Below, piece after piece: positions 9,507 to 48,625 of a stretch of 48,625 nucleotides of DNA. The stretch is from Bryobacteraceae bacterium (GTDB taxonomy: Bacteria; Acidobacteriota; Terriglobia; Bryobacterales; Bryobacteraceae). Position 1 is the stretch's first letter, and every line of letters begins with the position of its first letter. Both the position numbers and the translations under genes were made by a program. The notes below the pieces were generated by a model. The model had not been told where the DNA came from, made no database searches, and saw only the letters and a program-made list of their open reading frames with translations. The DNA is taken from NCBI GenBank assembly GCA_035650295.1, contig DASRHX010000677.1, positions 1 through 48,625 on the forward strand, read 5' to 3'.

Positions 9507-9514
9507 GGGTTCTC

Positions 9515-10087: not shown

Positions 10088-10097
10088 GGGGACTCCT

Positions 10098-10775: not shown

Positions 10776-13700
10776 CTACTCCGGTATCTCTTCGTTCAGT
10801 AATGGGTCTGTGGTTGCGGCATTGGTCGCCTTCGCCGACTCCGCCTCAGCCATCGCGTCTATGTTGCCGGCCGCCGCCTTGGCCTTCGTTTCTGGCGACA
10901 CGTAGTCCTGCCCGCTCATCAGCTCCGCGCCGGTCTCGCTAACCCATTTAGTGACTCGCCCACCTGTCAGAAAGGGCAAGCCATAGCCAATGGCGGCATC
11001 GAGGAGTGGGTTGGCGCCGGCTATCGAAAGCGCCTTCGAGGTGCCCCAAATCCACGCCGCTCGCCACGTCAGCTCAGTCAGTTTGTATTCCGAGTTCGCA
11101 TTCATGGGGGTGTCGTTGAGGCCGGCGCGCGCGGCGTCCTGAATGAGCTTCAGCGGCAAGGCGATCGTGGGGCCGGCCATGAGCTGGGTCAGATCACGCT
11201 CGTACTTGAGTCCAAACATCGCGTTCACCAGCGGATCAGCCGAGCCGAACATGCCGCTGCGTGACATTGACTGCCAAAACCAGTTGGGCAGTCCAAACTG
11301 CCTTTCTGCGAGCTTTTCTTTCTGCTCCTCCCAATCGTCGCCGCCGTAGAGCCATGCGCGCACCATGTACGCGGCCATCTGGGAGCCCATCAGCAGCGCA
11401 AAATTGGCGGCAGCGGAAGCGGCTGTTGCGACACCGATGGCCTTGTCTTCCTTCCACGCGTTGGAGATGCGTTTGCCGGTCGCAATGAGAATGTGACGCT
11501 GATAGGCAAACTGGAATGACAGGATGCCGTACATGTACGAATACTCTGGCTGCGAGGCCATGCGCGGCTTGTCGATGGCTCTCGGGTCCATGATTGCGCC
11601 ATCCGTGAAGCGGTTAATCGCCGTGCGGATTTCATCCAGGTGCCGCAACTTGTCCAGTTGCTGCACGGTCGTGATGTCGCCCAGCGATTGCAGTTCGCGC
11701 AGTAGTTCGAGGTTTGCCGAATCGAGGCCGAGTTCGGCGAGCGCCTGACGGGCAAGCACGGCCCTTGGCCCCGTGCCCAGGGCGCGGTTGGCGATCTTCG
11801 GCGCGTAACGCTGCATGAAAATCTGCGACGTAGCGCGCCGCATACTCATCGCGTGCGGGTGGATGCCGCTGATATGAAAGAAGCGCTGCGCCTTCACGCG
11901 ATCCGAGGAGTTCATCTCCAAGAGGTTGTAACGCTGAAGCATGAGCTGGTCGGCCAGATGGTCGGCCACGACGCCGAAGTACTCGGACATTTCGCGCCGC
12001 CATGCGGATTTTTGCTTCGCGCTCTTGATGGGCAGGTGTGAAACCAAGTCCTGCATCTGCGCATAGAACACACGGAGGATGTCTGTCATGTCGCGAGTTG
12101 CGCGCGCGACGACGATCGGCTCCGATATCTGCGACCAGAGCGCGCGCGCAAAAATGAATGGCGTCAGCACCGCGGCAATGCGCCCGCGCCAGCGAATGCC
12201 CTTCTGCGTCATGTTGGTGCTGTAGCGGCCGGTGAGTAGTTCGATGGATTTCTGCAACTCTTGGAAGTCGTCGGTGCTCATGCGTTTTTCAGAACCATCT
12301 ACTGCGGTGTACGGTTCGTTTGCCTTCTGCATCGCCGCATCGAGCTTCCAGCCGAGTTTCCTTTCCGGCGTTCCTGCCCTCGCGTTGGCCGACGCGGGGT
12401 TGCCGAAGAACTTGCCAAACTCCACGCGATGCACGGAATGCGAGATGTATGTGGTGATGAGTTCCAGCGGATCGTTCTTCAGGTAGTCGCCCATGATCTG
12501 ATCGGTTTCTGCCGGCAGGATGCGCGCCTTGGTGTAGTCGCTATTCGGATCGAGTTGGTCGAACGCAAACGCAGGCTTGTCACCCAGGCCGCGAATACGC
12601 ATTTCCCAATCGTTCGCGGCTTCCATCGCCCACGGATCGCGCAGCCCGTCATAGATGATTTTGCCCAGCGCGCGCACCTCGTCCTCGAGCTGGTCTGTGT
12701 CCTCGCCGGCCTCAGCAGCCTCCTTGAGCTCCGCCAGCTTCTTGTTGAGCGCCTTGGCGTCGTCTAACAATGCCTTGGCCGCCGCCTTGGCTTGCAATAC
12801 TCGACCAGTGCGCGCGATCTCCCGCACGTATTGCGTGAGATTTTCCAGCCGCTCCGGGTGTTCCAACGGGTCTTCGAGCACGTGATCGAGCGTGCCGACT
12901 TCGCGAGGGTAGACGAGCTTGTACAGCTTCTGTGCCTGCGCGCGGAATCCCGCCAGATCGCCCTCGACAACCAGGGAGTCAATCATGCGCGGTAGATAGC
13001 CGTTCTTCGCGTAACCGATGTTGACACCGTTGCTGACGTTATAGTTGTACATGTCGTTGAGGAAGCGGCGCATGTCGGCCGCCGGCGCCCTGATCTTCTC
13101 TGACACTGAGTTCTCAGGGATCGCATTCACCAACACATCGCGCATCTGCCGCAGCTCCCCGTCTGTGAAGCCACGTACGCCATGTTTCTCGATAATCTTC
13201 GCGAATCGATTCTGGTAGTCCTTTTCCCAGTGTTTGACTTCGTCGTTGTAGACCTTCCCCTGTATGCCGACGTTGGCGCCTGGGTCAGTGGCGAACATCC
13301 GCACCAGCGTCGCAAGTCCGGTGTTGCCCTTATGTTTGGCCTGGAGCGAAAGCAGTACGCCGCGAACCGTGAACGCGATCATCGCGGGCATTGCTTTGAT
13401 TTTCCCCGCAGCAATCATGCCCAGATTCGCGAACCAGCGGCGGGTGGGGCCGTAGCCCTTCGCGTTGAGCTTCGCGTCGCGGATGCCTTTCTCCTGCTCC
13501 GCGCGCGCGCGGGCATCGCGATCGGCACGATGCGTCTCGGCGAGTTGGCGCTGAAACGGTGCCTTCAAACGCTCGATGACGCTGCGCGCCTGCTGCATGA
13601 CCTGCGGTGGCAGATTTGGCGCGAGCTTGCGCCAGTAGCGAGTGTCGGTCGGCTCGATGGTGTTCGGCGCGCTGCCGGTCGGTGCAAGGCTGCGATCCCG

Positions 13701-16700
13701 CATCGCGCGCATCAACGTATCGAGCGCCGCGAAGATGTTGCCGCGATCCATCGCCTGCGGATACGGCACGCTCATCCAGCCGATGCGGTTCTCGTCGTAC
13801 ATGCGCGCCGACTGCGTGACGAACGGGTGATCGGCCGGCAGGCCCGCGATCTTGTGGGCGATGTATGACTCGTACACGCGCGCGAACATTTCCGTTGGCC
13901 GCTGCCAGTAGCCTTTATCGCTGTCTTCGGGCGTGGGGCCATCCTTCGCCTTCGCGCGCTCGTAGTAGTCGGACGCGATGTCCTGCTTCTTCGATTGTCC
14001 GGCTATGAACGTGTCGAGCTTTTTCTGGAGCACGGCCTTTTGTTTCGGCGTCTTCGCGGCTTTGATTTTGGCTTCAAGGTCTGCGACGTAGGTCGCCGCT
14101 GCGTCAGCATTGAAGAACATCGAGTTGAGCAACATGGCAAACGCGTCGCGCACCTGTTCATCGAGCGTTTGTGTCGTGCCGCCCTGGCGAGTCTTGCCGG
14201 TCAGGTGCCGGCCTTTGATGGCAAGGATATCTTGCGCATGGGTCTCGACCAGATAGTGATCGAGCGCGTGCGCCCACTCGTGCGCGAACGCATCGTTGCG
14301 GCGAGTCATGCCGATCGTTTTCGTGCTTGGCATGTAGTAGGCGAGGGCGCCGTCGTACTCGCGATGCAGCTGCATGGCCAGCCGGCCATTCAAACTCATG
14401 AATTCCGGGTTGACGTTCTGCACGGCGGCGAGGTTTGTTAGACCAATCCACGCATCTTTCAGCGCGTCGATGGCCTCGCCGATGGGTAGGTTTTTGTCCA
14501 TCTGAATATCGCGGAAACCGAACCGCGCCTTCAGAAGTTCGACGGCCTTATCGAAACGCCGCTTCGGCGTCGCCAGCTCCATCAGATCCGCGTTGATGTT
14601 GTTGTCAGTCCAGATGGTGTCCGGCGCGGCGCGGATTTCGCCTTCGCGCGTCATGCTGAACGGCCCAGGTTGTCGCTTGCTCTTGCGACGTTGCGGGCGG
14701 CGTACTTCGTCGCGCTCCTCGGCTTTGCTGGTATCGACGGGCTCCGGCGTCTCTTCACGTGGCACATTGCCCTTGCGTACTTCCTCCGCGTACCGCCGCA
14801 GCGATTCAGCCTCGTCCGTGTTGCCTTCCTCTTCAGCCTCGTCCGCCGCGCGATCGAGTGCATCGGCCTGTTCTGCCAGCGTAGGAATAGGCGCGTTGGC
14901 GTCGATGTCCGGTTCGAGCGTCTGTTGGTCTGCCCGTCCCTCGGCCGCTGGTTTTGCCGGTTTTGCCGCCTTGGTCTTCGTCGCACTCTTGACGAGCTGG
15001 CGCAGCGCGTCACGCGCCTCCGCATATTCGTAGTTCTCATACGGGTCGGTGACAACTTCGCGAATCTGTTCTTCCGTGAACCCGGCGGCGAGCGCCTGTT
15101 CGACGGCGCCGGCCGCTTCCGGGAACTGCGATAGCAGGCGTTCGGCCGGCGTCGCGTCGAGGTAGTTATTAGCCATGAAGAAGGAGGCGGCGAAACCTTC
15201 CGGCGTCGCGCTGCGCGCGTTCTTCGTTCTCAGGCTGCCGCCGCCGTACTTCGCGTGCATCTTGGAGCCTTCACTGGGCTCCACGGGAGCGACGGGAAGA
15301 TCAGTGTTGAACTTGCCCCACAGCAATGTTTTCTTCGTGTACGGGTCGCCGAAATCGTTCGGGTTGAACGAGTAGCGCGCGGGCGGCAATCCGGTCAGCG
15401 ACTCGATGCGGCCCACGGGATTCTCCAGCACCCAGAATCGCGGGCGCCAGAATTCCACTGTGCGCAGCGCCTGGAACACGAGTTCCTTGCTGGCCTCCGT
15501 GCGTCCGTCCGCATCCTTGTCGGCGAACCAGCGCGCGCCGGAGCTGGCGAAGTCCGTACACGGACAAGCAATCAGGATGCCGTCTACGGTGTGAATGTCC
15601 GGCATGTTGTCGGCAAACCATTCGACGGAAAAATCCTTGATGTCCGCGCCGTTCTGGATGTCGAACACGCGCACGTCGTAGCCAGCGTCGGCGAACGGCC
15701 TCGCCCAGTTACCCGTGAGGTCGAAGAGCGACAGGATTACCCGTTCGCTGTTGCCCTTCGGACGCTTGATCTTGCCCTGTTTCTCGGCGTGCTCCTGCCA
15801 ACTCTCGATGCGGCGCGCGGCCTCCTCTCTGGATAGATAGGTGCCGTAACTGGGGTGATCGGTGGCGCGCGTGCGCTTTTTCGGCGCGGCGAAGAGCGCC
15901 GGGAATTCGTTGATGACTTCGCTGAATTTGTCTTGCGTTGTTTCGAGCGGGAGGGTCTTGCCGCTGTCTGCCGCCTCCGTTTCGCCCTCCGCGTTCTGGC
16001 GCACCGGCCCCTCGGGCTGCGGGTACACCTCTCCGCGCTGCAACGGTTTAGCTGAGGCTGGTGCGGCGGGCGCCGGTTTCTCCGCAGGTTTCGCGGGCGG
16101 CGTAGTCGGCGCAGCCTGGGCGGGCAGGGGATGGTCTTTCGCATCGATCAGGGCGATGCCGTCTTTCAGTGCCGCAAGCCACTCGCCCTCGAAGCTCACT
16201 GCTTCTGCCGGTGTGTCTGCGGCATCGCGCTTCTGGCGCGTCGCATTAATCCGTGTCGAGGCCGAGAGGATGTTCCAAAAGGTTTTTGGGTAATCCTCCT
16301 GCTTCATCACCTTGAACTTTTCCCAAAACTCTTTCTCTGCCGCCTCCGTCTCCGGCGCAACCGGGGGGATCATTCCCACCCTCTCAGCCTCGGCGATCGC
16401 GTCGAGGCCCTTCTGCACCTCCGCCATCAACTCGGCGTTTGCGGTCGCCTTGTCTTCTTCCTTGGCACCATCGACTTTGCTTTTTGCGGCATTTATCGCG
16501 GTGCCCGCGTCCACGATTTTGTGGTGGATGCTTCGCGGGTACTTGTAGAGCGTATGGCCCCACCAGAACTTCCAAAACTCATCGAACCCCTTTCGCCATT
16601 CCGGCGGCGTCGGTGCTTGGACAGGCGCTGGCGGCGGCTTTTTCGCTGTCAGCGATGGTGGTTTCAGTTTTGCCTTCTTCGCGAACTCCTCGAATGCCTT

Positions 16701-19700
16701 GAGCGCTTTTTGGGCTTTTGCAACCTGATCGTGATAGTCGATCGCGTTCTGCGATTCCGTTGCGGCATCGAGGACTTTTTGTACATCCTCTGGAGTGATG
16801 CCCATCTCAACGAGCCCTTCCGCGCCTTTCGATTTCATCAGCGCAGTGAACTCAGTCATGTAGTGATTAATGGTCACGGTGGCTTCGTGGAGCTTATCGA
16901 CCATTTCTTGCGTGATTTCTTTACCGGAGTCCGCGAGGTTTCCGGCAATGGACGCCTTCAGTTTGCCGAGCGGGGTTCCGTCGTCGGCAGTGGTCTCTGG
17001 CTTCTGTGCGTTCGCGAGAACGCCGGCCATTAACTTCTTGACCGGATCGGTCTCACCGGTTTCAGTCGGTGGCGCGGCAGCTGCGCCACTTCGCACATAC
17101 GCTTCGCCGGTCAGCTTTTTGTATTCGGCTTCAAACTTTTTCAGTTTCTCTCTGTGGCGATCAATGTGCGCCTGTAGTTCGGCCTTCTTCTTGGGATCGG
17201 TTTCCGCATCGCGCTTCGCCTCTGCATCAGCAATGACTTTGTAGTACTCCTCAAGCCAATGCTCCGCCTCGTCTCGTGCGTTTTTGAATTTTGGCGCCGC
17301 AGCGGGCGCTGCCGGAGCTGGCGCAGCCTGGGCGGCTGGGGCCTTCTTCGCCGGCTTGCCCTTGCGCGCGGCCTTGGCCGCTTCCTCGGCTAACTGTTTC
17401 TGTCGCGACGTTGGCTCCGGCACGCGGCCGGCGGCGATTTCCTTCGCCTCATGAATCAATCGCGCAACTGACACGTGCGCAAAGCCGACCGCATCCTCGC
17501 GTTGCAAGACGTTCGTGGCCGTGCCGATTTCGGCAATGTCTTCACGCAAGCTCGTGAGGATTTCCGGCGAGAGTTTTTCCGCCGGCACCTGGGCCATCAG
17601 CGACTCCAGCTCATCGAGCTTCGGCAGCAAGTCGCGCGCGCTCTTGACGGCGCGGGCGTCGTGCGTCTCTTCGTTCTTCACTTGGCCGAATTTCTTCGGC
17701 GCCTTGATGAATTCGTTGAGCGCCGCGCGCTCTGTGTCGAACGGGCGCGCGCTTGCTTCGGCCGGCGGCGCGATCGGCATTTCCGGCGCTGGCGCGGCCG
17801 GCGGCGCATTGACGACTTCGCCCTCACTGCCGAATAGTTTGCCCTGTGCCGGCGGCGGTGCCGCTGGCTTGCGCTTGCCCTTCGGTGTGACTGCCTCGCC
17901 GAGCGTTCGCGGCTGAGAGGCAGCCCCACCCGCCGGGGGTTTCTGCGTCGGTGAAACCGGTTGACCTGCTTGGGGCGCAGATGTCGGCGCGGGTTCAGTT
18001 GACGCAGAAGGGGCGGGTGGGGCTGACTGTTGAAATGCGGTAGATAGGGAGCGGCTTTCCTCTGGAATGCTGACGCCAGCCGGATTTTTGCTCTTGCTCG
18101 TGTACTCGGCAACGATCTCTTCGAGCGGGCGCCTATCTTCTGGCGGAACCGCGATCGATTTCCCGTTCGGCTGGATCAGCGTCCAGCCGCCATGAATTCC
18201 GGGTGTTGCTTCGACGGTAGCGGGACCGCCTGTGCTGGTCTCGTCCTCAACCTGGGCCTGAATGACGAACGCGCCAGCGCGCGGAGGAGTCGCCGTCCTC
18301 TGGGAAGCAGTGGACGGGGCTGTAGGACCCACCGCACCGCCGATCCCAGAGGCCGGACTACCCGTGGTTGCGGGCGGCGGCATTGTACCAGCGTCCGGCG
18401 GCGGGCCTGCGCCAAATCGCATCGCTGGGACTGAGATGCCAGCCAGCTCAGACAGGTCGATCGTCGGGCCGGCTTGGGTGTTGATCGGCAGCTGCATCGG
18501 AATGTCGGACTGCTGCGGCAAGTTGGGCGCAGCGAATCCGCCGCCGCCCTGGCCGGCAAGAATGTCGGCGAAGTTCGCGACCGTGGATGCGTTGAAGCCA
18601 TCTGGCGCGCCGCCACCGGGCGGCGTTGGCGGCCTCGACTCAGGCAATGGGTCCGGTGTGCCGTACTGGAAAGCGGACTCATCGATGTGTGGTTCTGGCA
18701 GTGGGCTCGTCAGAACGCCGACGCCACCGCCCATGATGCCGCCGAGCACTGGCGCGCGCGCCATCCGCTCAAGCGCTTCGGCCACCGTCATGTCAGGGTT
18801 TAACCAGCCCTTGTCGACAGCGACGTTGATGTCTTCCGTGATTTCTTCGGAGATCGCCTCGGCTGTCGCCGTGCTGATTACATGCCCGCGCTTTCCTTCG
18901 GCCCACTTGCCGATCATCTTGCGCATCGCCTCTTTGCCGGTGGCCGTCTTCAAAGCCACTTCCAACACGCCCATTTCCGGCGCTACTTCGGCAAACGTCC
19001 TTGCCATCGAACCGAAGAGGGCTGTCGCATCGTCATGTCCCTCGTTCTTGAGGTTGGCGAATTCCTCGGGCAAGACAAGGCCGCCCATCGTCAAAGCGCC
19101 TGCTTCTGGCCCCAGCGCTATGCCAGCCACGAGAGCGGGAACCATGTCCGCGAGAACGGAATTCGCGGAATCGAAGAAGAACGCATCTGGACCCCACTCG
19201 CTCTCGAAGTGCGGGCGGGTGCGCTGGAGTTCGGCCGCGATGTCCTGTCGCTCCTTCGCGAGTCCTTCGAGTCGCGCGTCCTGCTCTGCGATCAGCGCGC
19301 GGTTCTCTTCCTTGAAGTTCTCCAGTTCCTGCGGCTCCATGTTGGCGATCGACGGCCAGTCGCGCGTGAAGACATCGGGCCGCACGCCTGCGCGCTTCGC
19401 CATTTCGGCAACATACGGGTCCTCGTCGTAGTTGATGCGGTCGCGCGGGTCCGCGACGGTGCGATTGAATTCGTCGATGCGGCGAATCGCGTCCGGCAAC
19501 ACCATCGCCTGCCAGAACTTTTTGCGTGCGTCCTGGCTGGCAACCATTTCCTGCGCGCCGACCGCTTTTAATCCGTAGCGGCCCACGACGGTCGGCGGGA
19601 TTGCTGCCAACGTGTCGCCGAACGTCGCATAAGGGCGAGTGTCGATCGGCGCTTGTGGTCTGGCGGCGGCGACTTCGATTTCTTGCAGCGGATTGCGCTG

Positions 19701-20381
19701 GTTTCGTTCCGACAGCCGTGGGCCTAGCCGCTGGTCTCTGAAACTCCCACTGTGAAAATCAGCCGGCTTTGTTAGCGGTCCACCGAGCGCCGCCATCTTG
19801 CTTTCGATGTCCGCCTCGCGCTCTGGCGTCATCGGCATGGAGACGCGCGGCTTCTCCGGCAATGGACCAAAGATAGACGCAAGGTCCGACTCCTCGAACA
19901 TCGGCTCTTCGGGTGGCGCGGTCATGCCCTGGCCCGGTCTCAGGAACGGCTGTTCCAAGTTGAGCGCGCTCGCCAACGGATGCGCGTCGGGCGGGCGCGG
20001 CAGCGCGTACTGGCGCTCCTGTTCCTTGTGCAGCTGCTGCGCGTACGCGTTGGCGTCCGCGATCGTGGCGAATTTTCCGAGATGCTTGCCGCTGCGGTAG
20101 TACTCGTCCTTGGCTTCTTGATCGGACATCAGTCGCCCGGAGTCGCTGATTGTTGGGACCAGAACTTCGCGGCCGTCGCGGTCCTGGAACGACATCGAGC
20201 GCACCGTGCTGAAGCCGCCCTCCGGGTGTTCGTAACGCTTGCGGTTGTCCAGGTTGATGTTGCCGGGCTCGCGCGCGCCGGGGCGAGCCGCTGGCGCATC
20301 CTCGTCCCACCACGACTCATTCGCCGCTTTCGGTTTCGCCGCCGGCTCGTCCTCTTCCCACCATTCAGGATTTGAACTCAT
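10776..20381 (-). CDS. 3201-aa polyvalent internal-virion-type protein
   Basis: Uninterrupted 9.6-kb ORF, ATGA-coupled to the upstream gene, sitting where podoviruses place ejected core proteins. Multiple recognisable modules separated by Pro/Ala-rich linkers. Confidence 0.9.
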   Translation of the reverse strand: MSSNPEWWEEDEPAAKPKAANESWWDEDAPAARPGAREPGNINLDNRKRYEHPEGGFSTVRSMSFQDRDGREVLVPTISDSGRLMSDQEAKDEYYRSGKHLGKFATIADANAYAQQLHKEQERQYALPRPPDAHPLASALNLEQPFLRPGQGMTAPPEEPMFEESDLASIFGPLPEKPRVSMPMTPEREADIESKMAALGGPLTKPADFHSGSFRDQRLGPRLSERNQRNPLQEIEVAAARPQAPIDTRPYATFGDTLAAIPPTVVGRYGLKAVGAQEMVASQDARKKFWQAMVLPDAIRRIDEFNRTVADPRDRINYDEDPYVAEMAKRAGVRPDVFTRDWPSIANMEPQELENFKEENRALIAEQDARLEGLAKERQDIAAELQRTRPHFESEWGPDAFFFDSANSVLADMVPALVAGIALGPEAGALTMGGLVLPEEFANLKNEGHDDATALFGSMARTFAEVAPEMGVLEVALKTATGKEAMRKMIGKWAEGKRGHVISTATAEAISEEITEDINVAVDKGWLNPDMTVAEALERMARAPVLGGIMGGGVGVLTSPLPEPHIDESAFQYGTPDPLPESRPPTPPGGGAPDGFNASTVANFADILAGQGGGGFAAPNLPQQSDIPMQLPINTQAGPTIDLSELAGISVPAMRFGAGPPPDAGTMPPPATTGSPASGIGGAVGPTAPSTASQRTATPPRAGAFVIQAQVEDETSTGGPATVEATPGIHGGWTLIQPNGKSIAVPPEDRRPLEEIVAEYTSKSKNPAGVSIPEESRSLSTAFQQSAPPAPSASTEPAPTSAPQAGQPVSPTQKPPAGGAASQPRTLGEAVTPKGKRKPAAPPPAQGKLFGSEGEVVNAPPAAPAPEMPIAPPAEASARPFDTERAALNEFIKAPKKFGQVKNEETHDARAVKSARDLLPKLDELESLMAQVPAEKLSPEILTSLREDIAEIGTATNVLQREDAVGFAHVSVARLIHEAKEIAAGRVPEPTSRQKQLAEEAAKAARKGKPAKKAPAAQAAPAPAAPAAAPKFKNARDEAEHWLEEYYKVIADAEAKRDAETDPKKKAELQAHIDRHREKLKKFEAEYKKLTGEAYVRSGAAAAPPTETGETDPVKKLMAGVLANAQKPETTADDGTPLGKLKASIAGNLADSGKEITQEMVDKLHEATVTINHYMTEFTALMKSKGAEGLVEMGITPEDVQKVLDAATESQNAIDYHDQVAKAQKALKAFEEFAKKAKLKPPSLTAKKPPPAPVQAPTPPEWRKGFDEFWKFWWGHTLYKYPRSIHHKIVDAGTAINAAKSKVDGAKEEDKATANAELMAEVQKGLDAIAEAERVGMIPPVAPETEAAEKEFWEKFKVMKQEDYPKTFWNILSASTRINATRQKRDAADTPAEAVSFEGEWLAALKDGIALIDAKDHPLPAQAAPTTPPAKPAEKPAPAAPASAKPLQRGEVYPQPEGPVRQNAEGETEAADSGKTLPLETTQDKFSEVINEFPALFAAPKKRTRATDHPSYGTYLSREEAARRIESWQEHAEKQGKIKRPKGNSERVILSLFDLTGNWARPFADAGYDVRVFDIQNGADIKDFSVEWFADNMPDIHTVDGILIACPCTDFASSGARWFADKDADGRTEASKELVFQALRTVEFWRPRFWVLENPVGRIESLTGLPPARYSFNPNDFGDPYTKKTLLWGKFNTDLPVAPVEPSEGSKMHAKYGGGSLRTKNARSATPEGFAASFFMANNYLDATPAERLLSQFPEAAGAVEQALAAGFTEEQIREVVTDPYENYEYAEARDALRQLVKSATKTKAAKPAKPAAEGRADQQTLEPDIDANAPIPTLAEQADALDRAADEAEEEGNTDEAESLRRYAEEVRKGNVPREETPEPVDTSKAEERDEVRRPQRRKSKRQPGPFSMTREGEIRAAPDTIWTDNNINADLMELATPKRRFDKAVELLKARFGFRDIQMDKNLPIGEAIDALKDAWIGLTNLAAVQNVNPEFMSLNGRLAMQLHREYDGALAYYMPSTKTIGMTRRNDAFAHEWAHALDHYLVETHAQDILAIKGRHLTGKTRQGGTTQTLDEQVRDAFAMLLNSMFFNADAAATYVADLEAKIKAAKTPKQKAVLQKKLDTFIAGQSKKQDIASDYYERAKAKDGPTPEDSDKGYWQRPTEMFARVYESYIAHKIAGLPADHPFVTQSARMYDENRIGWMSVPYPQAMDRGNIFAALDTLMRAMRDRSLAPTGSAPNTIEPTDTRYWRKLAPNLPPQVMQQARSVIERLKAPFQRQLAETHRADRDARARAEQEKGIRDAKLNAKGYGPTRRWFANLGMIAAGKIKAMPAMIAFTVRGVLLSLQAKHKGNTGLATLVRMFATDPGANVGIQGKVYNDEVKHWEKDYQNRFAKIIEKHGVRGFTDGELRQMRDVLVNAIPENSVSEKIRAPAADMRRFLNDMYNYNVSNGVNIGYAKNGYLPRMIDSLVVEGDLAGFRAQAQKLYKLVYPREVGTLDHVLEDPLEHPERLENLTQYVREIARTGRVLQAKAAAKALLDDAKALNKKLAELKEAAEAGEDTDQLEDEVRALGKIIYDGLRDPWAMEAANDWEMRIRGLGDKPAFAFDQLDPNSDYTKARILPAETDQIMGDYLKNDPLELITTYISHSVHRVEFGKFFGNPASANARAGTPERKLGWKLDAAMQKANEPYTAVDGSEKRMSTDDFQELQKSIELLTGRYSTNMTQKGIRWRGRIAAVLTPFIFARALWSQISEPIVVARATRDMTDILRVFYAQMQDLVSHLPIKSAKQKSAWRREMSEYFGVVADHLADQLMLQRYNLLEMNSSDRVKAQRFFHISGIHPHAMSMRRATSQIFMQRYAPKIANRALGTGPRAVLARQALAELGLDSANLELLRELQSLGDITTVQQLDKLRHLDEIRTAINRFTDGAIMDPRAIDKPRMASQPEYSYMYGILSFQFAYQRHILIATGKRISNAWKEDKAIGVATAASAAANFALLMGSQMAAYMVRAWLYGGDDWEEQKEKLAERQFGLPNWFWQSMSRSGMFGSADPLVNAMFGLKYERDLTQLMAGPTIALPLKLIQDAARAGLNDTPMNANSEYKLTELTWRAAWIWGTSKALSIAGANPLLDAAIGYGLPFLTGGRVTKWVSETGAELMSGQDYVSPETKAKAAAGNIDAMAEAESAKATNAATTDPLLNEEIPE
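14268..14282 (-). other. HExxH zinc-metallopeptidase motif inside the giant protein
   Basis: FAHEWAHALDHY, H2034-E2035-x-x-H2038. Confidence 0.6.
15309..15745 (-). other. C5 cytosine DNA methyltransferase domain inside the giant protein
   Basis: aa ~1546-1691: motif I-like ILSLFDLTGNW, motif IV PC dipeptide in ACPCTDFASSG (P1607-C1608, nt 15558-15563), motif VI ENPVG (E1653). Confidence 0.75.
20013..20261 (-). other. Conserved N-terminal module of the giant protein
   Basis: aa 41-123 NINLDNRKRYEHPEGGFSTVRSMSF..DGREVLVPTISDSGRLMSDQEAKDEYYRSGKHLGKFATIADANAYAQQLH, a pattern I recall at the N-termini of large phage virion proteins. Confidence 0.5.
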
Positions 20382-41733: not shown

Positions 41734-42228
41734 TCACGACGCGAGAGTCCTGCCGCCTGCCCGCTGTCTGGCAACCCTGGTATCAAGTTCGGCGCGTGTT
41801 GCCTCGATGAGCGCTGACAGTTCGGTGACCGTGAGCTCACGGACAGACTTGACCGGCGGCGAGTGGTCGCGCTTCAGATCGCCGGACACCTCCAACGCAG
41901 TGCGGACGGCAAGCACCTGGGCGCGAAGATCCGTGTGATCGCGGCTGACAAGTTGTTCCAGTTTCACCAAGGCCCGCTTCCCAAGCCGCTGAGCCCTTTC
42001 CCTTCCGGCAAGTTCAACAGCCTGCCGCGTGTCAGGGTCACGGCAGAACGACGCACAGTCACGCTGCGATGCGAAGCCGCACTTCTGCCGGATGTAGCTT
42101 TGCGAGCAGCCGGCCGCGAGCAGCGTCACGGCGAGTTCGTGATCAGGTTCGCCGGCAACCTGGGCGGACTCATTGCCGGCCAAGTCATCCGGCCAAAGCG
42201 TTTCAAGTTCGTTCTCTGTAGCCGTCAT
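41734..42228 (-). CDS. First gene of leftward operon: HTH protein, small-terminase-like or regulator
   Basis: LLAAGCSQSYIRQKCGFASQRDCASFCRDPDTRQAVE resembles the HTH of small terminase / regulatory proteins. Lies 9 kb from terL, so the function is uncertain. Confidence 0.35.
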   Translation of the reverse strand: MTATENELETLWPDDLAGNESAQVAGEPDHELAVTLLAAGCSQSYIRQKCGFASQRDCASFCRDPDTRQAVELAGRERAQRLGKRALVKLEQLVSRDHTDLRAQVLAVRTALEVSGDLKRDHSPPVKSVRELTVTELSALIEATRAELDTRVARQRAGGRTLAS

Positions 42229-42503
42229 AGTCAGTACTTGTAGACAAACATAGTCGGTCTAAGTCAGTTCCATTCTTAGTCAGACTATTAAACCAAGTCT
42301 GACTACCACGCCCGCCCCCCTCCCGCGTGATGCTGCGCGTTTGTGCGATGCGGTCACAAGAGTCTACCGGTGCGTGTACGTCCGCTGTATGGGACTTGTC
42401 GCCACTTGTCGGAGATTGTCGGTGCGTGTACTGTCCGGGGTGGCGCAAGCCGTGGCAGGGTGGTTCCTGCCGCGCAACTCGTGCCGCAACTGTAGGAGTT
42501 CAC
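42229..42503. promoter_or_regulatory. Divergent control region of leftward and rightward operons
   Basis: Inverted repeat TAGTCAGACT-N9-AGTCTGACTA (42277-42305). Direct repeat CGGTGCGTGTAC(T)GTCCG (42368-42384, 42420-42437). Three TTGTCG at 42396, 42406 and 42416. CGCCACTTGTCG at 42400-42411. Confidence 0.6.
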
Positions 42504-42689
42504 ATGCATCCGTTTGCACTGCCGCGCGCATCGCGCCGGCCCGTAGCTGTCCGCAGCTACTTCCATCAGCCGCGCACTCGCGTGGTTTCCACTGTCAACC
42601 CGTTCCGTCCTGACATTGCACGCATCGCGCTCGCGGTCGTGATCGGCTTCCAGCTCGTGATGCTCGTCGCCTGCGCGGTGCTCGCGTGA
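42504..42689 (+). CDS. 61-aa protein with C-terminal transmembrane helix
   Basis: CTGTAGGAG box 5 nt upstream; ...IARIALAVVIGFQLVMLVACAVLA. Confidence 0.55.
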   Translation: MHPFALPRASRRPVAVRSYFHQPRTRVVSTVNPFRPDIARIALAVVIGFQLVMLVACAVLA

Positions 42690-43009
42690 AGGGCCGCTCA
42701 ACAATCACCGTACTTCCGGTGACAGCGCCCGCGCCCACGGTTCACGCGTTCAACTCTGGTCGGCTGTACACGACTGCCGGCCAGCGCATCGCGTGGACTG
42801 TGCTCGCATCCGGTGACGTGTTGATCTGCGACCTTGATCGGCAGATTGACGGCTACGTCCTCGCCTTCCCCAAAGACTTCGCGCCCACAGATCGCGACGT
42901 GCTGCACGCGTACGACTTGGGCGGCCGCATGTCATGGTCGGACGAAGTCGCAGCCCTTCGCCCCTTGCTGGCGGCCGCTGCGCGTCTTGTTCCGGCGGTG
43001 CGACTGTGA
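42686..43009 (+). CDS. Hypothetical protein
   Basis: GTGA overlap with the upstream gene. Confidence 0.5.
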   Translation: MKGRSTITVLPVTAPAPTVHAFNSGRLYTTAGQRIAWTVLASGDVLICDLDRQIDGYVLAFPKDFAPTDRDVLHAYDLGGRMSWSDEVAALRPLLAAAARLVPAVRL

Positions 43010-43272
43010 GCCCGCGTTGGGATGTGTCGGCCCACCGTCGCGCCCGCATCGCACACATGCGCAAAGCCAAGCGCGCTGCTGAGTTCGCGCGTGATCCGGC
43101 TTGCGATGTGACAACGCGCCGGATCTGGCGCGAGCACGCGCGGCAGCACGTTGCCGCTGCGCGCCGTGAGCACTGGTTGCTGGTCGCGCAGTCCCGCGCG
43201 ATCAGCGCCGGGATGTTCTTCCGTAAGACCATCGGCGCGCACCTGCGCGCCACTGCGAGCCGCGCCGCGTAG
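43006..43272 (+). CDS. Basic hypothetical protein
   Basis: GTG start in a GTGA overlap; Arg/Ala-rich. Confidence 0.45.
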   Translation: MSPRWDVSAHRRARIAHMRKAKRAAEFARDPACDVTTRRIWREHARQHVAAARREHWLLVAQSRAISAGMFFRKTIGAHLRATASRAA

Positions 43273-43352
43273 CGCGCTCCCTGTTGGCCATGCTCACGCG
43301 TGGCCAATGGGGGAGCGCACTACCGCGCCCCACAACTGTAGGAGCTACGCAC

Positions 43353-43538
43353 ATGCAGAACGTAAAGACCGAAGTCAAAGGGAACACGCTCACGATCACC
43401 GTGGACCTGTCCGCGCGCCTGGGGCCGTCGAAGTCCGGTAAGTCGGATCTGATCGCGACCACGTCGGGCAACGCGAGTGTTAACGCGCCCGGCGTTGGTG
43501 CCGTGAAGATCGGATTGAACGTGTACACCGGCCGCTGA
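43353..43538 (+). CDS. 61-aa hypothetical protein
   Basis: CTGTAGGAG box 8 nt upstream; MQNVKTEVKGNTLTITVDLSARLGPSKSGKSDLIATTSGN... Confidence 0.6.
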   Translation: MQNVKTEVKGNTLTITVDLSARLGPSKSGKSDLIATTSGNASVNAPGVGAVKIGLNVYTGR

Positions 43539-43625
43539 TCGCCGCGCCTCATGTACCGGGGTTCACTCCGGTACATGGGGAGCGGCGAATGGTTCGCACG
43601 CTCGCACACTGTAGGAGTTCAACTC

Positions 43626-44156
43626 ATGCCCGATGTACTCGACCAACTCGCACCCGTGCCCGGCATCGCCGCGCACCAACTCTACAAGCGCAACGCGGAC
43701 GGCAGCTACGCGCTCGCCGACACTGCGACGATTTGCAAAGTCGCCGACGTGCGCGGACGGCTCGCACTGCGCAAGGGATCGCCCGTGATGTCCGCGCCCG
43801 CCAATACGCGCGCGTTCCTGCGCGCGCACCTGGGCACGTTGGAGCACGAAGTTTTCGCCATGCTGATTCTCGACAATCGCCACCGGCTGATCGAATACGT
43901 CGAGCTGTTCCGGGGCACGATTGACGGGGCATCGGTGCATCCGCGCGAAGTCGTGAAAGAAGTCCTGAAACGAAACGGGGCGGCCGTGATTTTCTCGCAC
44001 AATCACCCTTCCGGCGTCGCCGAAGCATCGCAGGCGGATGAACTCATTACGCGCCGTCTGCGCGATGCGCTCGCACTGATCGACGTGCGCGTACTCGATC
44101 ATCTGATCATCGGCGCGGAAAACACGCTGTCTTTTGCCGAGCGCGGGATGATTTGA
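43626..44156 (+). CDS. radC: RadC-like JAB/MPN-domain protein
   Basis: CTGTAGGAG box 8 nt upstream; ...[46 protein letters not shown]. Confidence 0.85.
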
Positions 44157-44221
44157 GCGATATCCCTGTTGCGCCTGCTCACGCGGGCGCAATGGGGAAA
44201 TCACTCAACCTGTAGGAGCGA

Positions 44222-44809
44222 ATGACAATGGACGAAAAACAATTTCACGCGCTCGCGGCGGATATCGCCAAGGCGTTAGGGGGCGCGGTCACGCGTCGCA
44301 ATGACACAGGCAATCCGCCCTTCGCGGACTTCGGCACGCGCGACGCGCTGCCCTTGAACGTCGCCACCGTCTGGAACGATGCCAGCAAGCTGCGGATATC
44401 CGTGGTCATGCCGCGCAAAGAGGACAGCGCTTGCCGGTACAGCGTGCGCGATATGTACGCGCGCAACGAGGTGACGCCGGACACGGAAATCGGCGTCAGT
44501 GCTGCCAAAGGGGCGGAGCGCATCGCGGCCGATATCAAGCGCCGGCTGATACCTGGGGCGACCGATGCACACCGGCGGGCCGTCGAGCGTCGCAACGCGG
44601 ACAACGCCTACCGGGCAGCAAAAGCGGCGACCGTCGCGCGACTGTGCAAGGCGCTTAAGTGCGAGGCGCGCGGCGAAATGGTGTACGCGGGCGCGTGTTC
44701 CTTTCAGGTATCGGGGCCGGAATCAATCCAGATCGATCGGCTGTACGTGACGCCCGATACCGCGCTCAAAATTCACGCACTACTGAAAGCCGATAAGGGG
44801 GGCGAATGA
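44222..44809 (+). CDS. Hypothetical protein
   Basis: CTGTAGGAG box upstream. ATG 44228 has the better spacing and may be the real start. Confidence 0.55.
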   Translation: MTMDEKQFHALAADIAKALGGAVTRRNDTGNPPFADFGTRDALPLNVATVWNDASKLRISVVMPRKEDSACRYSVRDMYARNEVTPDTEIGVSAAKGAERIAADIKRRLIPGATDAHRRAVERRNADNAYRAAKAATVARLCKALKCEARGEMVYAGACSFQVSGPESIQIDRLYVTPDTALKIHALLKADKGGE

Positions 44810-44898
44810 CGCACGCGCGCTTCTAACACGCTGACGAGCCCGGAAGGGCGAAACCCGCGCGACGCGGGTCCGTGTTTCAAACTGTAGGAGTTTCGACC

Positions 44899-45144
44899 AT
44901 GCCAAGAAAGAAAGCCGCGCCCGAAGGGCGCGAAACAAACGCGGACTTTGTCGCGCGCGTGATGGAGTTCTCGAAGTCGGGACCGCTCGCGCAACTGTTC
45001 GTCATCGAATCAATCCGGCGATACGCGGAGGCGTGCGCGGATGCGCCCCCGGAAAAGATGCAAACGGGGTTTATCTCCGGCGCGCAGTGGAAGCGTTGCG
45101 CGCAGGAAATTCACGCGGAGGTAACGCGCCACCTGGGCGAGTGA
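44899..45144 (+). CDS. Hypothetical protein
   Basis: CTGTAGGAG box 8 nt upstream; 81 aa. Confidence 0.55.
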   Translation: MPRKKAAPEGRETNADFVARVMEFSKSGPLAQLFVIESIRRYAEACADAPPEKMQTGFISGAQWKRCAQEIHAEVTRHLGE

Positions 45145-45217
45145 AACCAGTCAAGGGCGCACAAGGATGCGCGCCCCTTCGCTGGTTTCACATGTCCAAA
45201 CTGTAGGAGTAATTCAT

Positions 45218-45859
45218 ATGTTCACTGTCACTGTTTCACACAACACACTGCGCGCACTGGCGCTCATCGCCCCCAAAGACGATGTGCGTATTTATCTCAA
45301 CGGCCTGCTGATCGACACCACGACTCCGGGGCGCGTAATGCTGGTCGCGTGCGATGGACACCGGGCGCTCGTCGTCGGCAATGCCAAGGCCGGCGGTGAT
45401 ATCGACAGCCACCTGTCTCGGGGTCAATTTATCGTGCCGATTGAGGCGATCACGTCGGCCAAACCCGTGCGCAAAGATCCGATTGAAATTCAGATCGATC
45501 CGATCACGGATATTCGCGCGGACTACACCGTACGCGGGAAATTGACCGGAACCGGGCGCACGATTGACGGCCGTTTCCCGGACTGGCGGCGCATCATTCC
45601 GACGCTGCGCACGGGGCAGGGCGAACTCGCACACTTCAACCTGCAATACCTTGGGGACTTTGGGCGCGCGGCGGAACTGCTCGACTGCAAGTACCCGCAC
45701 ATCGTCCACAACGGGGAGTGCGCCGCGTGGATCAACCTGGGCTCTGACGCGTTCGGTATCCTCATGCCGATTCGCGGGGATACCGTGGTGGGCTGCGGCG
45801 GTATCGTGACGTGGCTCGACGCGGTAGCGCCGGAGTACGTAACCAAGAAGGCCGCGTAA
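45218..45859 (+). CDS. Truncated sliding-clamp (DNA polymerase III beta, DnaN) homologue
   Basis: CTGTAGGAG box 8 nt upstream. DVRIYLNGLLID...LVACDGHRALVV...IVP...GRTIDGRFPDWRRIIP parallels DnaN domain II-III motifs DVRYYLNGMLFE...VATDGHRLAV...LVDGRFPDYRRVLP, recalled from memory. Only 213 aa. Confidence 0.7.
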   Translation: MFTVTVSHNTLRALALIAPKDDVRIYLNGLLIDTTTPGRVMLVACDGHRALVVGNAKAGGDIDSHLSRGQFIVPIEAITSAKPVRKDPIEIQIDPITDIRADYTVRGKLTGTGRTIDGRFPDWRRIIPTLRTGQGELAHFNLQYLGDFGRAAELLDCKYPHIVHNGECAAWINLGSDAFGILMPIRGDTVVGCGGIVTWLDAVAPEYVTKKAA

Positions 45860-46066
45860 CCCGCTGATGATGGCCCGCGAGAAGGGCCGAAACGCCGCGA
45901 GGCGTCCGGGTATGAAAAACGTGTCAAGCAATTTTTGTTGGGGAAACCGGGAGCGCGGTTTCCCGGAATCGCCGGCAAACTACCGCGCGAACGAAGGGGC
46001 GCAAAAACACGTTTGATAAAATAGTGTTTCGCGCGTCAATCGCGGCGCGCGTCAACTGTAGGAGCA

Positions 46067-46300
46067 ATGATGACTAATACAAAGATGGCGAAGCTCGTCG
46101 CCGACTTGGACCGCGCCGAGTCCAAGATGCTGCGCGCATTTACCAAGTGGTCGAAGCTGCGCGCCCAAGTGCGACGAGCCGGCGCGAAGCTCGACAAGGG
46201 CGGGGCGGCGAACGAGTTGGGGAGCGAGTACGAACTGTCCGAAATGGCCAAGGCGGCGGGCGTGAAGCCGCGTGCGTGGCCAGCGCGCAAACACAAGTAG
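46067..46300 (+). CDS. Small coiled-coil-like hypothetical protein
   Basis: CTGTAGGAG box upstream; ATG 46070 has the better spacing. Confidence 0.5.
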   Translation: MMTNTKMAKLVADLDRAESKMLRAFTKWSKLRAQVRRAGAKLDKGGAANELGSEYELSEMAKAAGVKPRAWPARKHK

Positions 46301-46364
46301 AGCATTGCCGGTCGCGCATCCGAAAGGGTGCGCTTCCGGGAATTCTCAACCTGTAGGAGTCGAC

Positions 46365-46739
46365 ATGAAATTACATCACGATGAAACCGCCACGATACTC
46401 GCGGCGCTGCGCTGGTATCAGCGCGCGCTCGTTGCGCGCGGCGAAGTTCCACCGACGGAAGTCGCCGCCATCGCCACCAACGAGGGCGACTTGGAGCCAC
46501 TGGACAGCGCTGGCGTCGATGATCTGTGCGAGCGCATCAACTGCGACACCGATGGAATTGGGGCCGATGAATCCGCGCAACGCATCGCGTGTTCGGTGAA
46601 TGCCGTCACGCAGATTGTCGCGCTGCTCGACGGTAAGGAATGGGATTCTGAAACCATCTGCGCGGTCGCAAACATCTTGCGCGAGGAAGGGTTTCCGGTG
46701 CGCGATCTGGATGACGAGGAGGAAGCCGATGGCGGATGA
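46365..46739 (+). CDS. Acidic hypothetical protein
   Basis: CTGTAGGAG box 5 nt upstream; ILAALRWYQ...ends VRDLDDEEEADGG. Confidence 0.55.
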   Translation: MKLHHDETATILAALRWYQRALVARGEVPPTEVAAIATNEGDLEPLDSAGVDDLCERINCDTDGIGADESAQRIACSVNAVTQIVALLDGKEWDSETICAVANILREEGFPVRDLDDEEEADGG

Positions 46740-47010
46740 AACTCGGTACACCTGGGCGCAACTCGAAGCCGCTGCGTGCATGTGGCAACACGTATGGGAC
46801 GCAATACACCGTCGTAGAACAGGCGGCGATCCGTGGCTGGACTATCGCGACGCCTACGGAACCGTGGCCCTACGGTGCGCGGTAATTTCTCACGCGCCGA
46901 CATTGTTGGCTGCGTACGAAGCGGCACTCACGAACGGGTACAAAAAGGACTTCGATCTGGATTTCGTTCCGAACTACATGAAGGACCACGTCACGCGTAT
47001 CCTCACGTGA
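46729..47010 (+). CDS. Hypothetical protein
   Basis: Start set to ATG 46729 (GAGGAGGAAG SD), 11-nt overlap with the upstream gene. Confidence 0.5.
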   Translation: MADETRYTWAQLEAAACMWQHVWDAIHRRRTGGDPWLDYRDAYGTVALRCAVISHAPTLLAAYEAALTNGYKKDFDLDFVPNYMKDHVTRILT

Positions 47011-47082
47011 AGTCACTGATGAGCCCGTGCGATCCGGGCGAAACGGCGGGAGCCGTCTGACTATTCAACTGGGAGCAGAAAA

Positions 47083-47283
47083 ATGAGAAAGATGATTTTC
47101 GCAATGGCGGTACTGGCAGCCGCACCAGCATTCGCGGGGTCGGCATTCTGGACTGGCAATGTGCGATATGTGACAACCGTGTCCTATCAACAGGGCGTGA
47201 ACTGTGAGTACAACTACAACGGACAACTGTTCTGGCGTACGTTCGTTGGCTCATCGTGCCCGTCCACGGTGGAGGTGTACTGA
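47083..47283 (+). CDS. Small secreted protein with signal peptide and two Cys (moron candidate)
   Basis: MRKMIFAMAVLAAAPAFAGS signal-like N-terminus; own GGGAG SD; followed by a terminator. Confidence 0.6.
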   Translation: MRKMIFAMAVLAAAPAFAGSAFWTGNVRYVTTVSYQQGVNCEYNYNGQLFWRTFVGSSCPSTVEVY

Positions 47284-47332: not shown

Positions 47333-47372
47333 AACCCCGGCGGAGTTAATTCCGACCGGGGTTTACTTTTTT
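47333..47372 (+). terminator. Rho-independent terminator
   Basis: AACCCCGGCGGA...TCCGACCGGGGTT stem followed by TACTTTTTT. It also abuts the stop of the convergent minus-strand gene. Confidence 0.7.
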
Positions 47373-47674
47373 GGGGTCTTCACGATTCGCGAATAGCGAA
47401 TACGCCGGCCGCGTATCTGCATGTTCGTTTCTACTTTCAACCGCCACTCAAGCCACGCGGCAAGCTCCTGCTTCGCGCGCGTCTCGTCCATGTAGTAGCG
47501 CGGAAAACCGTCCTGCCAGTCGATGTCCTCGACGCCGAAAACTTTTCCATCCCAGTGACCACGGTCGCAGTACGCGTTACGCGGCGCGAGTGTCACGTAT
47601 GCATTACCGATCCGGTAAACCTGACAGCCCCAATCCTCGTGGAAAAACCACTCGCGCGAGGGGGTGTCTTTCAC
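47363..47674 (-). CDS. 103-aa hypothetical protein, second gene of tRNA-proximal pair
   Basis: GTG start in a GTGA overlap with the upstream ORF; Trp/Asp-rich. Confidence 0.55.
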   Translation of the reverse strand: MKDTPSREWFFHEDWGCQVYRIGNAYVTLAPRNAYCDRGHWDGKVFGVEDIDWQDGFPRYYMDETRAKQELAAWLEWRLKVETNMQIRGRRIRYSRIVKTPKK

Positions 47675-47963: not shown

Positions 47964-48038
47964 TGGTGCAGCCAGTAGGGATCGAACCTACGACCTCTCC
48001 CATGTCAAGGGAACGCTCTACCGCTGAGCTATGGCTGC
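47964..48038 (-). tRNA. tRNA-Val, anticodon GAC, CCA encoded
   Basis: Hand-folded 75-nt cloverleaf: acceptor GCAGCCA/TGGCTGC, D arm GCTC-AGCGGTA-GAGC, anticodon arm TTCCC-TTGACAT-GGGAG, variable loop AGGTC, T arm GTAGG-TTCGATC-CCTAC, then A-CCA. Confidence 0.9.
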
Positions 48039-48394: not shown

Positions 48395-48441
48395 GCGGTC
48401 GCGTAGCCCAGTGGTAAAAATTCAAACGAGGAACTGTAGGC

Positions 48442-48625
48442 ATGAGACGTTCAAACACGATGATTTCCGAGAAGTGGCTGGAGAAGGTCACCAAGGCGCG
48501 CGACCCGCAAAGCTGCGGCAAGTGCTACACCGATTCAGAAGTGCGCGGGCTGGTGCTGTGGATCTCGACCGATGGGGTCGTCAGCTTCACCTTTCGTATG
48601 CGTATCGGCGGCAAGAAGGGCAAGC
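48442..48625 (+). CDS. int: N-terminal 61 codons of a P4-type integrase (DUF4102-like arm-binding domain), cut by window edge
   Basis: Hand translation MRRSNTMISEKWLEKVTKARDPQSCGKCYTDSEVRGLVLWISTDGVVSFTFRMRIGGKKGK; GAGGAA SD. Confidence 0.75.
   Translation, partial: MRRSNTMISEKWLEKVTKARDPQSCGKCYTDSEVRGLVLWISTDGVVSFTFRMRIGGKKGK

Follow-up and report, generated by a model that had tools for sequence, protein, structure and literature searches.

The contig DASRHX010000677.1 from a Bryobacteraceae bacterium, 48,625 nucleotides (nt) long and referred to here in its entirety as the window, is a near-complete, circularly permuted genome of a temperate tailed phage (61% GC), and its rightward operon (42504-47283) carries a reiterated module between consecutive cistrons. 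In each module, the stop codon that closes the upstream gene lies at the base of a structured element or inside that base, and the element is followed by a short A/C/U-rich linker, the RNA sequence (A)ACUGUAGGAG, 2 to 8 nt, and an AUG. At five gene-gene junctions and in the 5' leader, the element is a near-perfect hairpin of ~20 bp; at three junctions, it is a type I hammerhead ribozyme motif. Because the elements are biased to one strand, covary in their stems, and share the same gap with catalytic motifs that operate only as RNA, a function at the RNA level, on the transcribed strand, is well supported, and punctuation of a polycistronic mRNA would be the most economical mechanism. On balance, and with only modest confidence, we favor a reading in which the modules punctuate the RNA of this early/accessory operon, cutting or insulating the mRNA and providing one standard ribosome-binding site (RBS) per cistron.

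The ribosome-binding box, CTGTAGGAG in DNA, occurs exactly eight times in the window, always on the + strand and within 3.9 kb (42490-46359). Chance would supply 0.11 copies, none of 100 shuffles reached eight, and a search permitting one mismatch added only four scattered sites, which is the chance level. All eight copies had been listed in the initial annotation, each shortly before the ATG of a good open reading frame (ORF), and all are exact; the ATG lies 2 to 8 nt 3' of every copy and opens an ORF of 61 to 213 amino acids (aa). Box 1 (42490-42498) lies 5 nt before the ATG of g1 (42504-42689), and boxes 2 (43336-43344) and 3 (43609-43617) each lie 8 nt before the ATG of, respectively, g4 (43353-43538) and a RadC-like gene (43626-44156). 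Box 4 (44210-44218) stands 3 or 9 nt before the ATG of g6 (44222-44809), and the spacing is again 8 nt for boxes 5 (44882-44890) and 6 (45201-45209), which serve g7 (44899-45144) and a beta-clamp-like gene (45218-45859). Box 7 (46056-46064) precedes the ATG of g9 (46067-46300) by 2 or 5 nt, and box 8 (46351-46359) precedes that of g10 (46365-46739) by 5 nt. With a degenerate copy, caaCTGGGAG (47066-47075, + strand, 7 nt before the ATG of g12 at 47083-47283), the boxes cover all eight non-overlapping junctions of the operon and its 5' leader. Box and module are missing at the three junctions where genes overlap, namely, the GTGA sequences at 42686 and 43006 and the start at 46729 within the end of g10.

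Outside the operon, the window has ~45 other likely starts of genes, none with the box, and the structural and RecET units are free of it, which bears out the initial remark that the other two transcription units lack it. Gene starts in this genome thus do not share the box as a common context. A truncated copy, ACTGTAGG, does precede the integrase-like gene at the edge of the window, as had been noted (48433-48440, + strand, 1 nt before the ATG at 48442), and the uncut box lies ahead of the homologous integrase-like gene in three related genomes (L002, L055, and L056). Written as RNA with its flanks, the box is AACUGUAGGAGU, and its AGGAG core is a Shine-Dalgarno sequence at normal spacing. 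In a hand check against the usual tail of 16S rRNA (...CACCUCCUU(A/UCU), standing in for that of the host), only AGGAG paired with the 16S 3' end and the CUGU flank did not.

Three of the gaps hold complete type I hammerhead motifs that the initial annotation missed, and they add weight to its suggestion that a processing role is plausible. Our descriptor (stem I of at least 4 bp, CUGANGA, stem II, GAAA, stem III, UH, and the other strand of stem I) returned these three motifs in the window and none in 100 dinucleotide-preserving shuffles. The first, HH-a (44825-44876, + strand), has an open stem I and reads aacacg-CUGACGA-GCCC(GGAA)GGGC-GAAA-CCCGCG(CGA)CGCGGG-UC/cguguu, the slash marking the predicted cut between 44870 and 44871, 11 nt before box 5. 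The second, HH-b (45859-45911, + strand; CUGAUGA-U-GGCCC...), is predicted to cut between 45906 and 45907 and includes the stop codon of the clamp gene in its stem I. The third, HH-c (47011-47062, + strand), reads aguca-CUGAUGA-GCCCG(UGCGAU)CGGGC-GAAA-CGGC(GGGA)GCCG-UC/ugacu, with a predicted cut between 47057 and 47058, and precedes g12, the gene with the degenerate box. Compared with the hammerhead core (C3 U4 G5 A6 N7 G8 A9, G12 A13 A14, the A15.1-U16.1 pair, and an H17 other than G), all three have CUGANGA, GAAA, the A15.1-U16.1 pair, and UC at the cleavage site. Their helices comprise 5 to 7 bp in stem I, 4 to 6 bp in stem II, and 4 to 6 bp in stem III in addition to A15.1-U16.1, with standard pairs flanking the core at 1.1-2.1 and 10.1-11.1.

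Of seven intercistronic hairpins that had been proposed, six fold far better than shuffled sequences (z = -3.7 to -6.9), with helices of 19, 22, 22, 22, 21, and 18 bp whose bases touch or take in the stop codon of the upstream gene. The seventh did not survive: the segment 44808-44898 folds at z = -0.7, and the supposed hairpin at 44850-44878 is stem III of HH-a. The claim that a two-tier hairpin precedes every box likewise fails at box 7, which is preceded instead by HH-b, a 144-nt spacer, and a small 8-bp hairpin (46030-46051, + strand, in a fold of 45950-46066) that ends 4 nt before the box. The leader hairpin, h1 (42440-42487), is two-tiered, with 19 bp, a folding energy of -33.3 kcal/mol, and z = -3.7, and ends 2 nt before box 1. 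Two hairpins of 22 bp, h2 (43270-43322, z = -4.75) and h4 (44155-44206, z = -6.9), belong to one CCUG...YGGG family, the former holding the stop codon of g3 in its base and the latter overlapping that of the RadC-like gene. Another 22-bp hairpin, h3 (43539-43588, z = -6.2), starts directly 3' of the g4 stop codon. The 21-bp h6 (45141-45191, z = -5.6) has the stop codon of g7 inside it and is conserved among five genomes, three of its pairs showing compensatory change, and the 18-bp h8 (46300-46347) folds at z = -4.25. All of these lie on the + strand. Their 18 to 22 bp match the length of double-stranded RNA that RNase III takes as a substrate (a helix of ~20 bp or longer, some two turns). A search of Rfam at E values up to 10 gave no twister, pistol, hatchet, or RAGATH match on the hairpins, and near-perfect helices with no conserved unpaired core make a known ribozyme class unlikely for them. 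Type II or type III hammerheads concealed in the hairpin gaps were considered and rejected, as none occurs there in the window or in close relatives. We also rejected integron attC-like single-stranded DNA recombination sites, as no GTTRRRY/RYYYAAC core surrounds the hairpins and hammerheads, which work only as RNA, fill the same gap on the transcribed strand.

Metagenomic relatives, with 41 to 98% identity in the clamp-like protein, were fetched with that protein as probe. The clamp identity is 49 to 98% for a first group (L001, L002, L004, L027, L028, L055, L056, and L057), ~50% for L003, L029, and L059, and 42% for L030. The relatives keep the order of stop codon, hairpin or hammerhead, box, and ATG, and their hairpins and hammerheads recur with other stem sequences. 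Applied to the window and its relatives together, the descriptor yielded 17 hammerheads, representing 14 distinct sequences; every one is on the coding strand and occupies a gap of this same kind. All 11 core positions are kept in the 14 distinct sequences, in whose stems every cell of the alignment is paired (100%) and 12 of 20 base pairs have changed on both sides. The initial annotation had recognized 43274-43318 and 44159-44202 as homologous hairpins with compensatory changes, had argued that their stems were selected as structure, and had proposed that covariation be sought in related phages. We confirm the homology, and the compensatory changes extend to nine further copies in relatives; the resulting family of 11 shows both-sided changes in 13 of 25 pairs, on the transcribed strand, and an invariant U.G wobble. 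These counts come from hand-registered, N-padded alignments, as MAFFT had put stem II out of register; a covariance model built from the non-window hammerheads only was dropped because of the same misregistration.

Which element fills the gap 3' of the clamp-like gene depends on the genome: the window, L027, L028, L056, and L057 have a hammerhead there, and L001, L002, L003, and L055 have a hairpin. The two kinds of element thus substitute for each other at an orthologous junction, and this natural swap experiment bears directly on a rival explanation in which the hairpins are transcriptional signals (terminators or attenuators lacking a U-tract, or pause sites) that antitermination reads through to give graded expression, with the hammerheads an unrelated addition. 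The hairpins are indeed GC-rich, stable, and directly 3' of stop codons, and the leader hairpin could, speculatively, be an RNA polymerase-modifying element. None of the intercistronic hairpins, however, has a T-run on its 3' side, and a terminator scan reported none of them, so they are not intrinsic terminators; the real terminator of the operon, at 47333-47373, does have a T-run. A uniform 18 to 22 bp also suits recognition of double-stranded RNA better than termination, and hammerheads in the place of hairpins are hard to square with a transcriptional role. We regard this explanation as improbable.

The box is conserved in a manner that its Shine-Dalgarno core alone would not predict. In the first group of relatives, (A)ACTGTAGGAG lies ahead of every uncoupled operon gene and also ahead of the integrase-like gene, which lies past attP and is transcribed separately. 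From 37 distinct copies in eight genome fragments we derived the consensus AA-CTGTAGGAG-T; the spacer to the ATG is most often 8 nt. The four positions outside the Shine-Dalgarno sequence, CUGU, are invariant in 37 of 37 copies, while the proteins have diverged to ~50% identity. Within the window, the eight copies share only ~12 nt, and the adjacent hairpins and linkers are wholly different. An invariant CUGU across diverged genomes, amid differing linkers and hairpins, argues for selection on the box itself and not for conversion or recent duplication. A single-base variant, CTGTAGGGG, stands before the g9 homolog at 1129-1137 of L027, whose clamp protein is 98% identical, and the change falls in the Shine-Dalgarno core.

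More distant relatives carry other boxes at the same positions. The group of L003, L029, and L059 has no CTGTAGGAG; in its place, GGAGCTGTC (also written GGAGCUGUC) stands 1 to 3 nt ahead of the start codon in genes of the same kinds, for example, at 4830-8090 of L003. In L030, the box is CCTGACAGGAGACTACG (also written CTGACAGGAGACTACG) and lies directly before the ATG (1143-2960 and 9605). Three lineages thus have three reiterated boxes, and all copies within one lineage have changed together, which amounts to a natural specificity test. In the window itself, TAGGAGCTGA is found at 6151-6160 and 7932-7941, before starts at 6164 and 7945 in a + strand unit at the leftward end; it resembles the L003-lineage box GGAGCTGTC, not CTGTAGGAG.

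These observations bear on two further explanations, both of which we consider quite unlikely. The first holds that the box is a DNA site akin to the stoperators of mycobacteriophage L5: a phage repressor would bind the asymmetric intergenic sites of 9 to 12 bp and, in the lysogen, block transcription along the operon and into int, and the overlap with the Shine-Dalgarno sequence would be incidental. L5 stoperators have the same sequence as the repressor's operator at the early promoter and are spread over early and late operons. Here, the control region (42224-42431) has repeats of its own (TAGTCAG-type repeats and two copies of CGGTGCGTGTAC) that are unlike the box, and neither the structural nor the RecET unit contains a copy of the box. 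In favor of a DNA site, the copies are asymmetric, in a single orientation, intergenic, and confined to non-structural genes and int, and a DNA-binding protein was favored for the ESAS repeats of Cluster K mycobacteriophages (Pope et al., PMC3203893). A DNA site, however, would account poorly for the tight spacing between box and ATG (mode, 8 nt), for the absence of the box exactly at translationally coupled genes, and for the purine-rich Shine-Dalgarno core that degenerate copies retain.

The second, which we judge no more probable, is that nothing unusual is at work: a strong Shine-Dalgarno sequence in a context preferred by the host, generic stabilizing hairpins, and hammerhead-like motifs that are inactive relics. 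AGGAG at 5 to 8 nt is a normal Shine-Dalgarno sequence, the Rfam scores of the motifs fall below threshold, and no gain in accessibility is predicted. Against this stand the invariance of CUGU in all 37 copies beside proteins of only ~50% identity, the ~45 other genes of the same phage that do without the box, and the complete hammerhead cores with their covarying stems; relics would not retain all 11 core positions in 14 distinct sequences.

The hairpin h8 and box 8 are nearly identical in four genomes while the genes upstream (two kinds) and downstream (four kinds) differ, so the module also appears to be a seam for cassette exchange. That it is mainly a recombination seam for RecET-type exchange, with the boxes identical by descent or gene conversion, is a highly improbable account despite this pattern and despite the YqaJ/RecE-like and RecT-like proteins that the phage encodes, as the ~12 nt shared among eight copies are too short for conversion tracts and bear the signature of selection on the box, and the compensatory changes in the stems reveal selection on RNA pairing.

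An independent parallel comes from a viral contig of 43.8 kb (L066; IMGVR_UViG_3300020577_004875), apparently unrelated to the window phage, that came to light in a scan of viral contigs with the HH-a core and its stem II as the pattern. Within ~10.5 kb (reverse complement, ~118-10472) it has 11 hammerheads of type I and 7 of type II, with ribozymes at nearly every junction of an operon. Sixteen of these 18 hammerheads are followed, ~5 to 35 nt 3', by CCCAAGGAG or a one-mismatch copy and then by a start codon, and most of the boxes have the form (A)CCCAAGGAGG. The parallel indicates that a ribozyme, a short leader, a phage-specific reiterated RBS box, and a start codon form a recurring design. 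Burkholderia phage Bcep176, for which a variant hammerhead has been published (Perreault et al. 2011, PMC3088659), was examined as a cultured analog and had no reiterated box and no descriptor match.

Under the reading that we favor, intercistronic punctuation at the RNA level, the operon would be transcribed as a single RNA. The hammerheads would cleave themselves in vivo, leaving the 3' end of the upstream cistron capped by stems II and III and the downstream cistron with a 5'-OH leader of ~25 to 30 nt in which the box begins ~11 nt from the new end. The hairpins would act equivalently, being cut by host RNase III or else protecting or insulating 3' ends. Every cistron so released or insulated would be translated from the same RBS, with AGGAG as the Shine-Dalgarno sequence, and the lineage-specific, invariant CUGU(A) flank would mark the operon mRNAs and the separate integrase mRNA for a common factor or for a common efficiency of initiation. 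What reads the box could be a factor, a nuclease, or merely an optimal context for initiation. The seam for exchanging gene cassettes among related phages would be a by-product, and the scheme, if true, would explain how freely shuffled accessory cassettes are expressed independently of their neighbors.

Several observations weigh against this reading. The best Rfam matches of the hammerhead motifs are RAGATH-1-hammerhead at 22.9 bits (threshold, 56.3) and Hammerhead_3 at 20.4 and 19.6 bits (threshold, 48.5), with HH-a among the sub-threshold matches, and nothing in the window other than the tRNA reaches an Rfam gathering score. Stem I is short (5 to 7 bp), and no clear tertiary contact between stem I and loop II is apparent by eye, so cleavage may be slow; UUCU/GGAA pairing is possible, on inspection, in some hammerhead copies and absent in others. 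HH-b has an extra U at position 45871, between A9 and G10.1. A register set by pairing inflates the percentage of paired cells, although it leaves the compensatory substitutions unaffected, and the comparison of box contexts covers the phage's own gene starts. Finally, the region from -18 to +3 has a predicted unpaired probability of 0.45 in box genes and of 0.41 in 42 other genes (p = 0.17). The in silico folds thus reveal no simple "insulated RBS" effect, and we abandoned the notion that the hairpins serve to keep the RBS single-stranded.

The extra U of HH-b recurs (CUGAKGA-U-G...) in three relatives, including 8939-8988 and 10634-10686 of L056 and 10621-10678 of L057; HH-b is identical in L027 and L028 and has a variant form in L056 and L057. 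An extra nucleotide at the same position is known in the CChMVd hammerhead, where a U raised the cleavage rate, and the recurrence suggests a tolerated or favored change to the core. Many natural hammerheads lack recognizable tertiary contacts (Perreault et al. 2011, PMC3088659). By descriptor and covariation, we class the window hammerheads, predicted to be self-cleaving, as additional members of the known hammerhead family, albeit below the Rfam thresholds, which is how motifs of this kind come to be overlooked by routine annotation.

A bolder extension of the punctuation reading, which we advance tentatively and consider doubtful, is that the box is the address label of a lineage-specific post-transcriptional regulon. 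A phage or host RNA-binding factor, either a translational regulator or an endoribonuclease, would read (A)ACUGUAGGAG on the processed early cistrons and the integrase mRNA; coevolution of factor and box would have produced three boxes in three related lineages, and the hairpin with the U.G wobble would be a protein-dependent processing signal equal to the hammerhead. If true, this regulon would give prophage hammerheads and SAS-like boxes their first defined biological role.

The setting of the operon is that of a temperate phage with no close cultured relative: megablast, blastn, and tblastn searches against 50,697 phage records returned none, and a scan of species-representative genomes with the clamp-like protein returned relatives of at most 34% identity. 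The window encodes a terminase large subunit, a major head protein, and the YqaJ/RecE-like and RecT-like proteins and carries a tRNA-Val gene. A minus-strand ORF of 3,201 aa (10776-20381) has an LPD1 polyvalent-protein domain and a weak cytosine-methylase signal, and its product is probably an injected, DarB-like polyvalent protein. The rightward operon originates at a divergent control region and ends at the canonical intrinsic terminator (47333-47373, + strand), whose GC stem and T-run were read from the sequence and to whose stem and U-run weak Rfam matches align. Its products are small proteins with no assigned function, the RadC-like JAB protein, and the beta-clamp-like protein. A putative repressor gene (41734-42228, minus strand) faces the operon across the control region, the repeats of which (four or five direct or inverted TAGTCAG-type copies and the two copies of CGGTGCGTGTAC) are probably operators, unrelated to the box. 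The 144-nt spacer between HH-b and box 7 (45912-46055), which has segments rich in A and T (TTGATAAAATAG) together with several small inverted repeats, is conserved in L027, L028, and L056 and may serve the distal genes as an internal promoter or as a regulatory region. The tRNA-Val(GAC) gene is complete at 47964-48038 on the minus strand, between the terminator region and the integrase-like gene, and the site is probably attP or an integration target; a tRNA-like sequence occupies the same place in L001 and L002. The integrase-like gene is split over the two ends of the window (48442-48625 and 1-1332), and against a 549-aa homolog in L055 the right-end fragment corresponds to residues 15 to 75 and the left-end ORF to residues 113 to 539. 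With ~37 codons thus missing between the ends, the contig is a circular genome broken within that gene. The contigs of relatives are of nearly equal extent, from 48,566 to 48,669 bp.

The locus joins two old questions, the role of genomic hammerheads in bacteria and phages and the role of start-associated sequences (SAS). Perreault et al. (2011, PMC3088659) described several hammerheads that flank single genes near prophage integrases, and the clustered prophage hammerheads cleave in vitro and in Escherichia coli and were proposed to process transcripts into gene-length mRNAs. A 2019 review still regarded the function of genomic hammerheads in bacteria and phages, this mRNA-processing proposal included, as unresolved (PMC6765202). 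The window resembles those prophages in that the hammerheads lie on the coding strand, beside an integrase, between single genes or short accessory or anti-restriction blocks. It differs in that only three of nine modules are hammerheads, the rest being covarying hairpins of ~20 bp that are interchangeable with hammerheads at one junction; in that each element is followed by an invariant extended RBS box; and in that the motifs fall below Rfam thresholds. We found no mention of the hairpin/hammerhead interchange or of an extended RBS box in the text of PMC3088659.

The second question concerns the SAS (GGGATAGGAGCCC, a 13-bp consensus with up to two mismatches) and ESAS that Pope et al. (2011, PMC3203893) described in Cluster K mycobacteriophages, in which 11 to 19 copies lie in one orientation, in the non-structural half of the genome only, and 3 to 7 nt before the ATG. 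Those authors found no support for RNA hairpins and no compensatory changes and favored a DNA-binding protein (PMC3203893); the function of SAS/ESAS was still untested in 2025 (PMC12699233). Like the SAS, the box described here is asymmetric, is confined to one orientation, surrounds an AGGAG core near the ATG of non-structural genes (GGGATAGGAGCCC versus AACTGTAGGAGT), and has conserved positions unable to pair with 16S rRNA, and inverted repeats occur upstream, as they do for about half of the SAS copies. It differs in sequence, AACTGTAGGAGT sharing only TAGGAG with GGGATAGGAGCCC, and in host phylum, and the 61% GC genome has no actinophage relatives. The ESAS, moreover, has a conserved consensus, whereas the repeats in the window vary, covary as RNA helices, and are replaceable by ribozymes. 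By these comparisons the box is a behavioral analog of the SAS, not a member of its family.

Three better-understood systems offer mechanistic analogies. The early RNase III sites of phage T7 are hairpins between early cistrons with a characteristic internal loop and known cleavage positions; as in the window, the hairpins separate cistrons of one transcript and each cistron has its own RBS, but the helices here are near-perfect over 18 to 22 bp and are candidate RNase III substrates. RegB of phage T4 targets GGAG in early Shine-Dalgarno sequences, and the operon described here likewise would present a set of early mRNAs with a common GGAG RBS that could be switched off together. To our knowledge, RegB needs no extended CUGU flank, and no RegB-like Pfam or PHROG match was found among the ten operon proteins, the other phage genes being partly screened. 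RiboJ is an engineered ribozyme insulator, with a hairpin after the ribozyme, that is placed before a standard RBS. In both cases, a hammerhead-type element lies directly 5' of a standard RBS and would yield a defined 5' leader independent of the upstream context; the arrangement in the window is natural and is repeated along an operon. The initial annotation held that the module had not been described in this form, and that claim stands in part: PMC3088659 and PMC3203893 report related cases, while neither the combined module nor the hairpin family itself was found described in the literature. The locus unites the themes of prophage hammerheads and of SAS and adds a covarying family of hairpins interchangeable with ribozymes, and if processing and a standard RBS do operate together there, it would be a natural counterpart of the synthetic design that couples a ribozyme insulator to a standard RBS.

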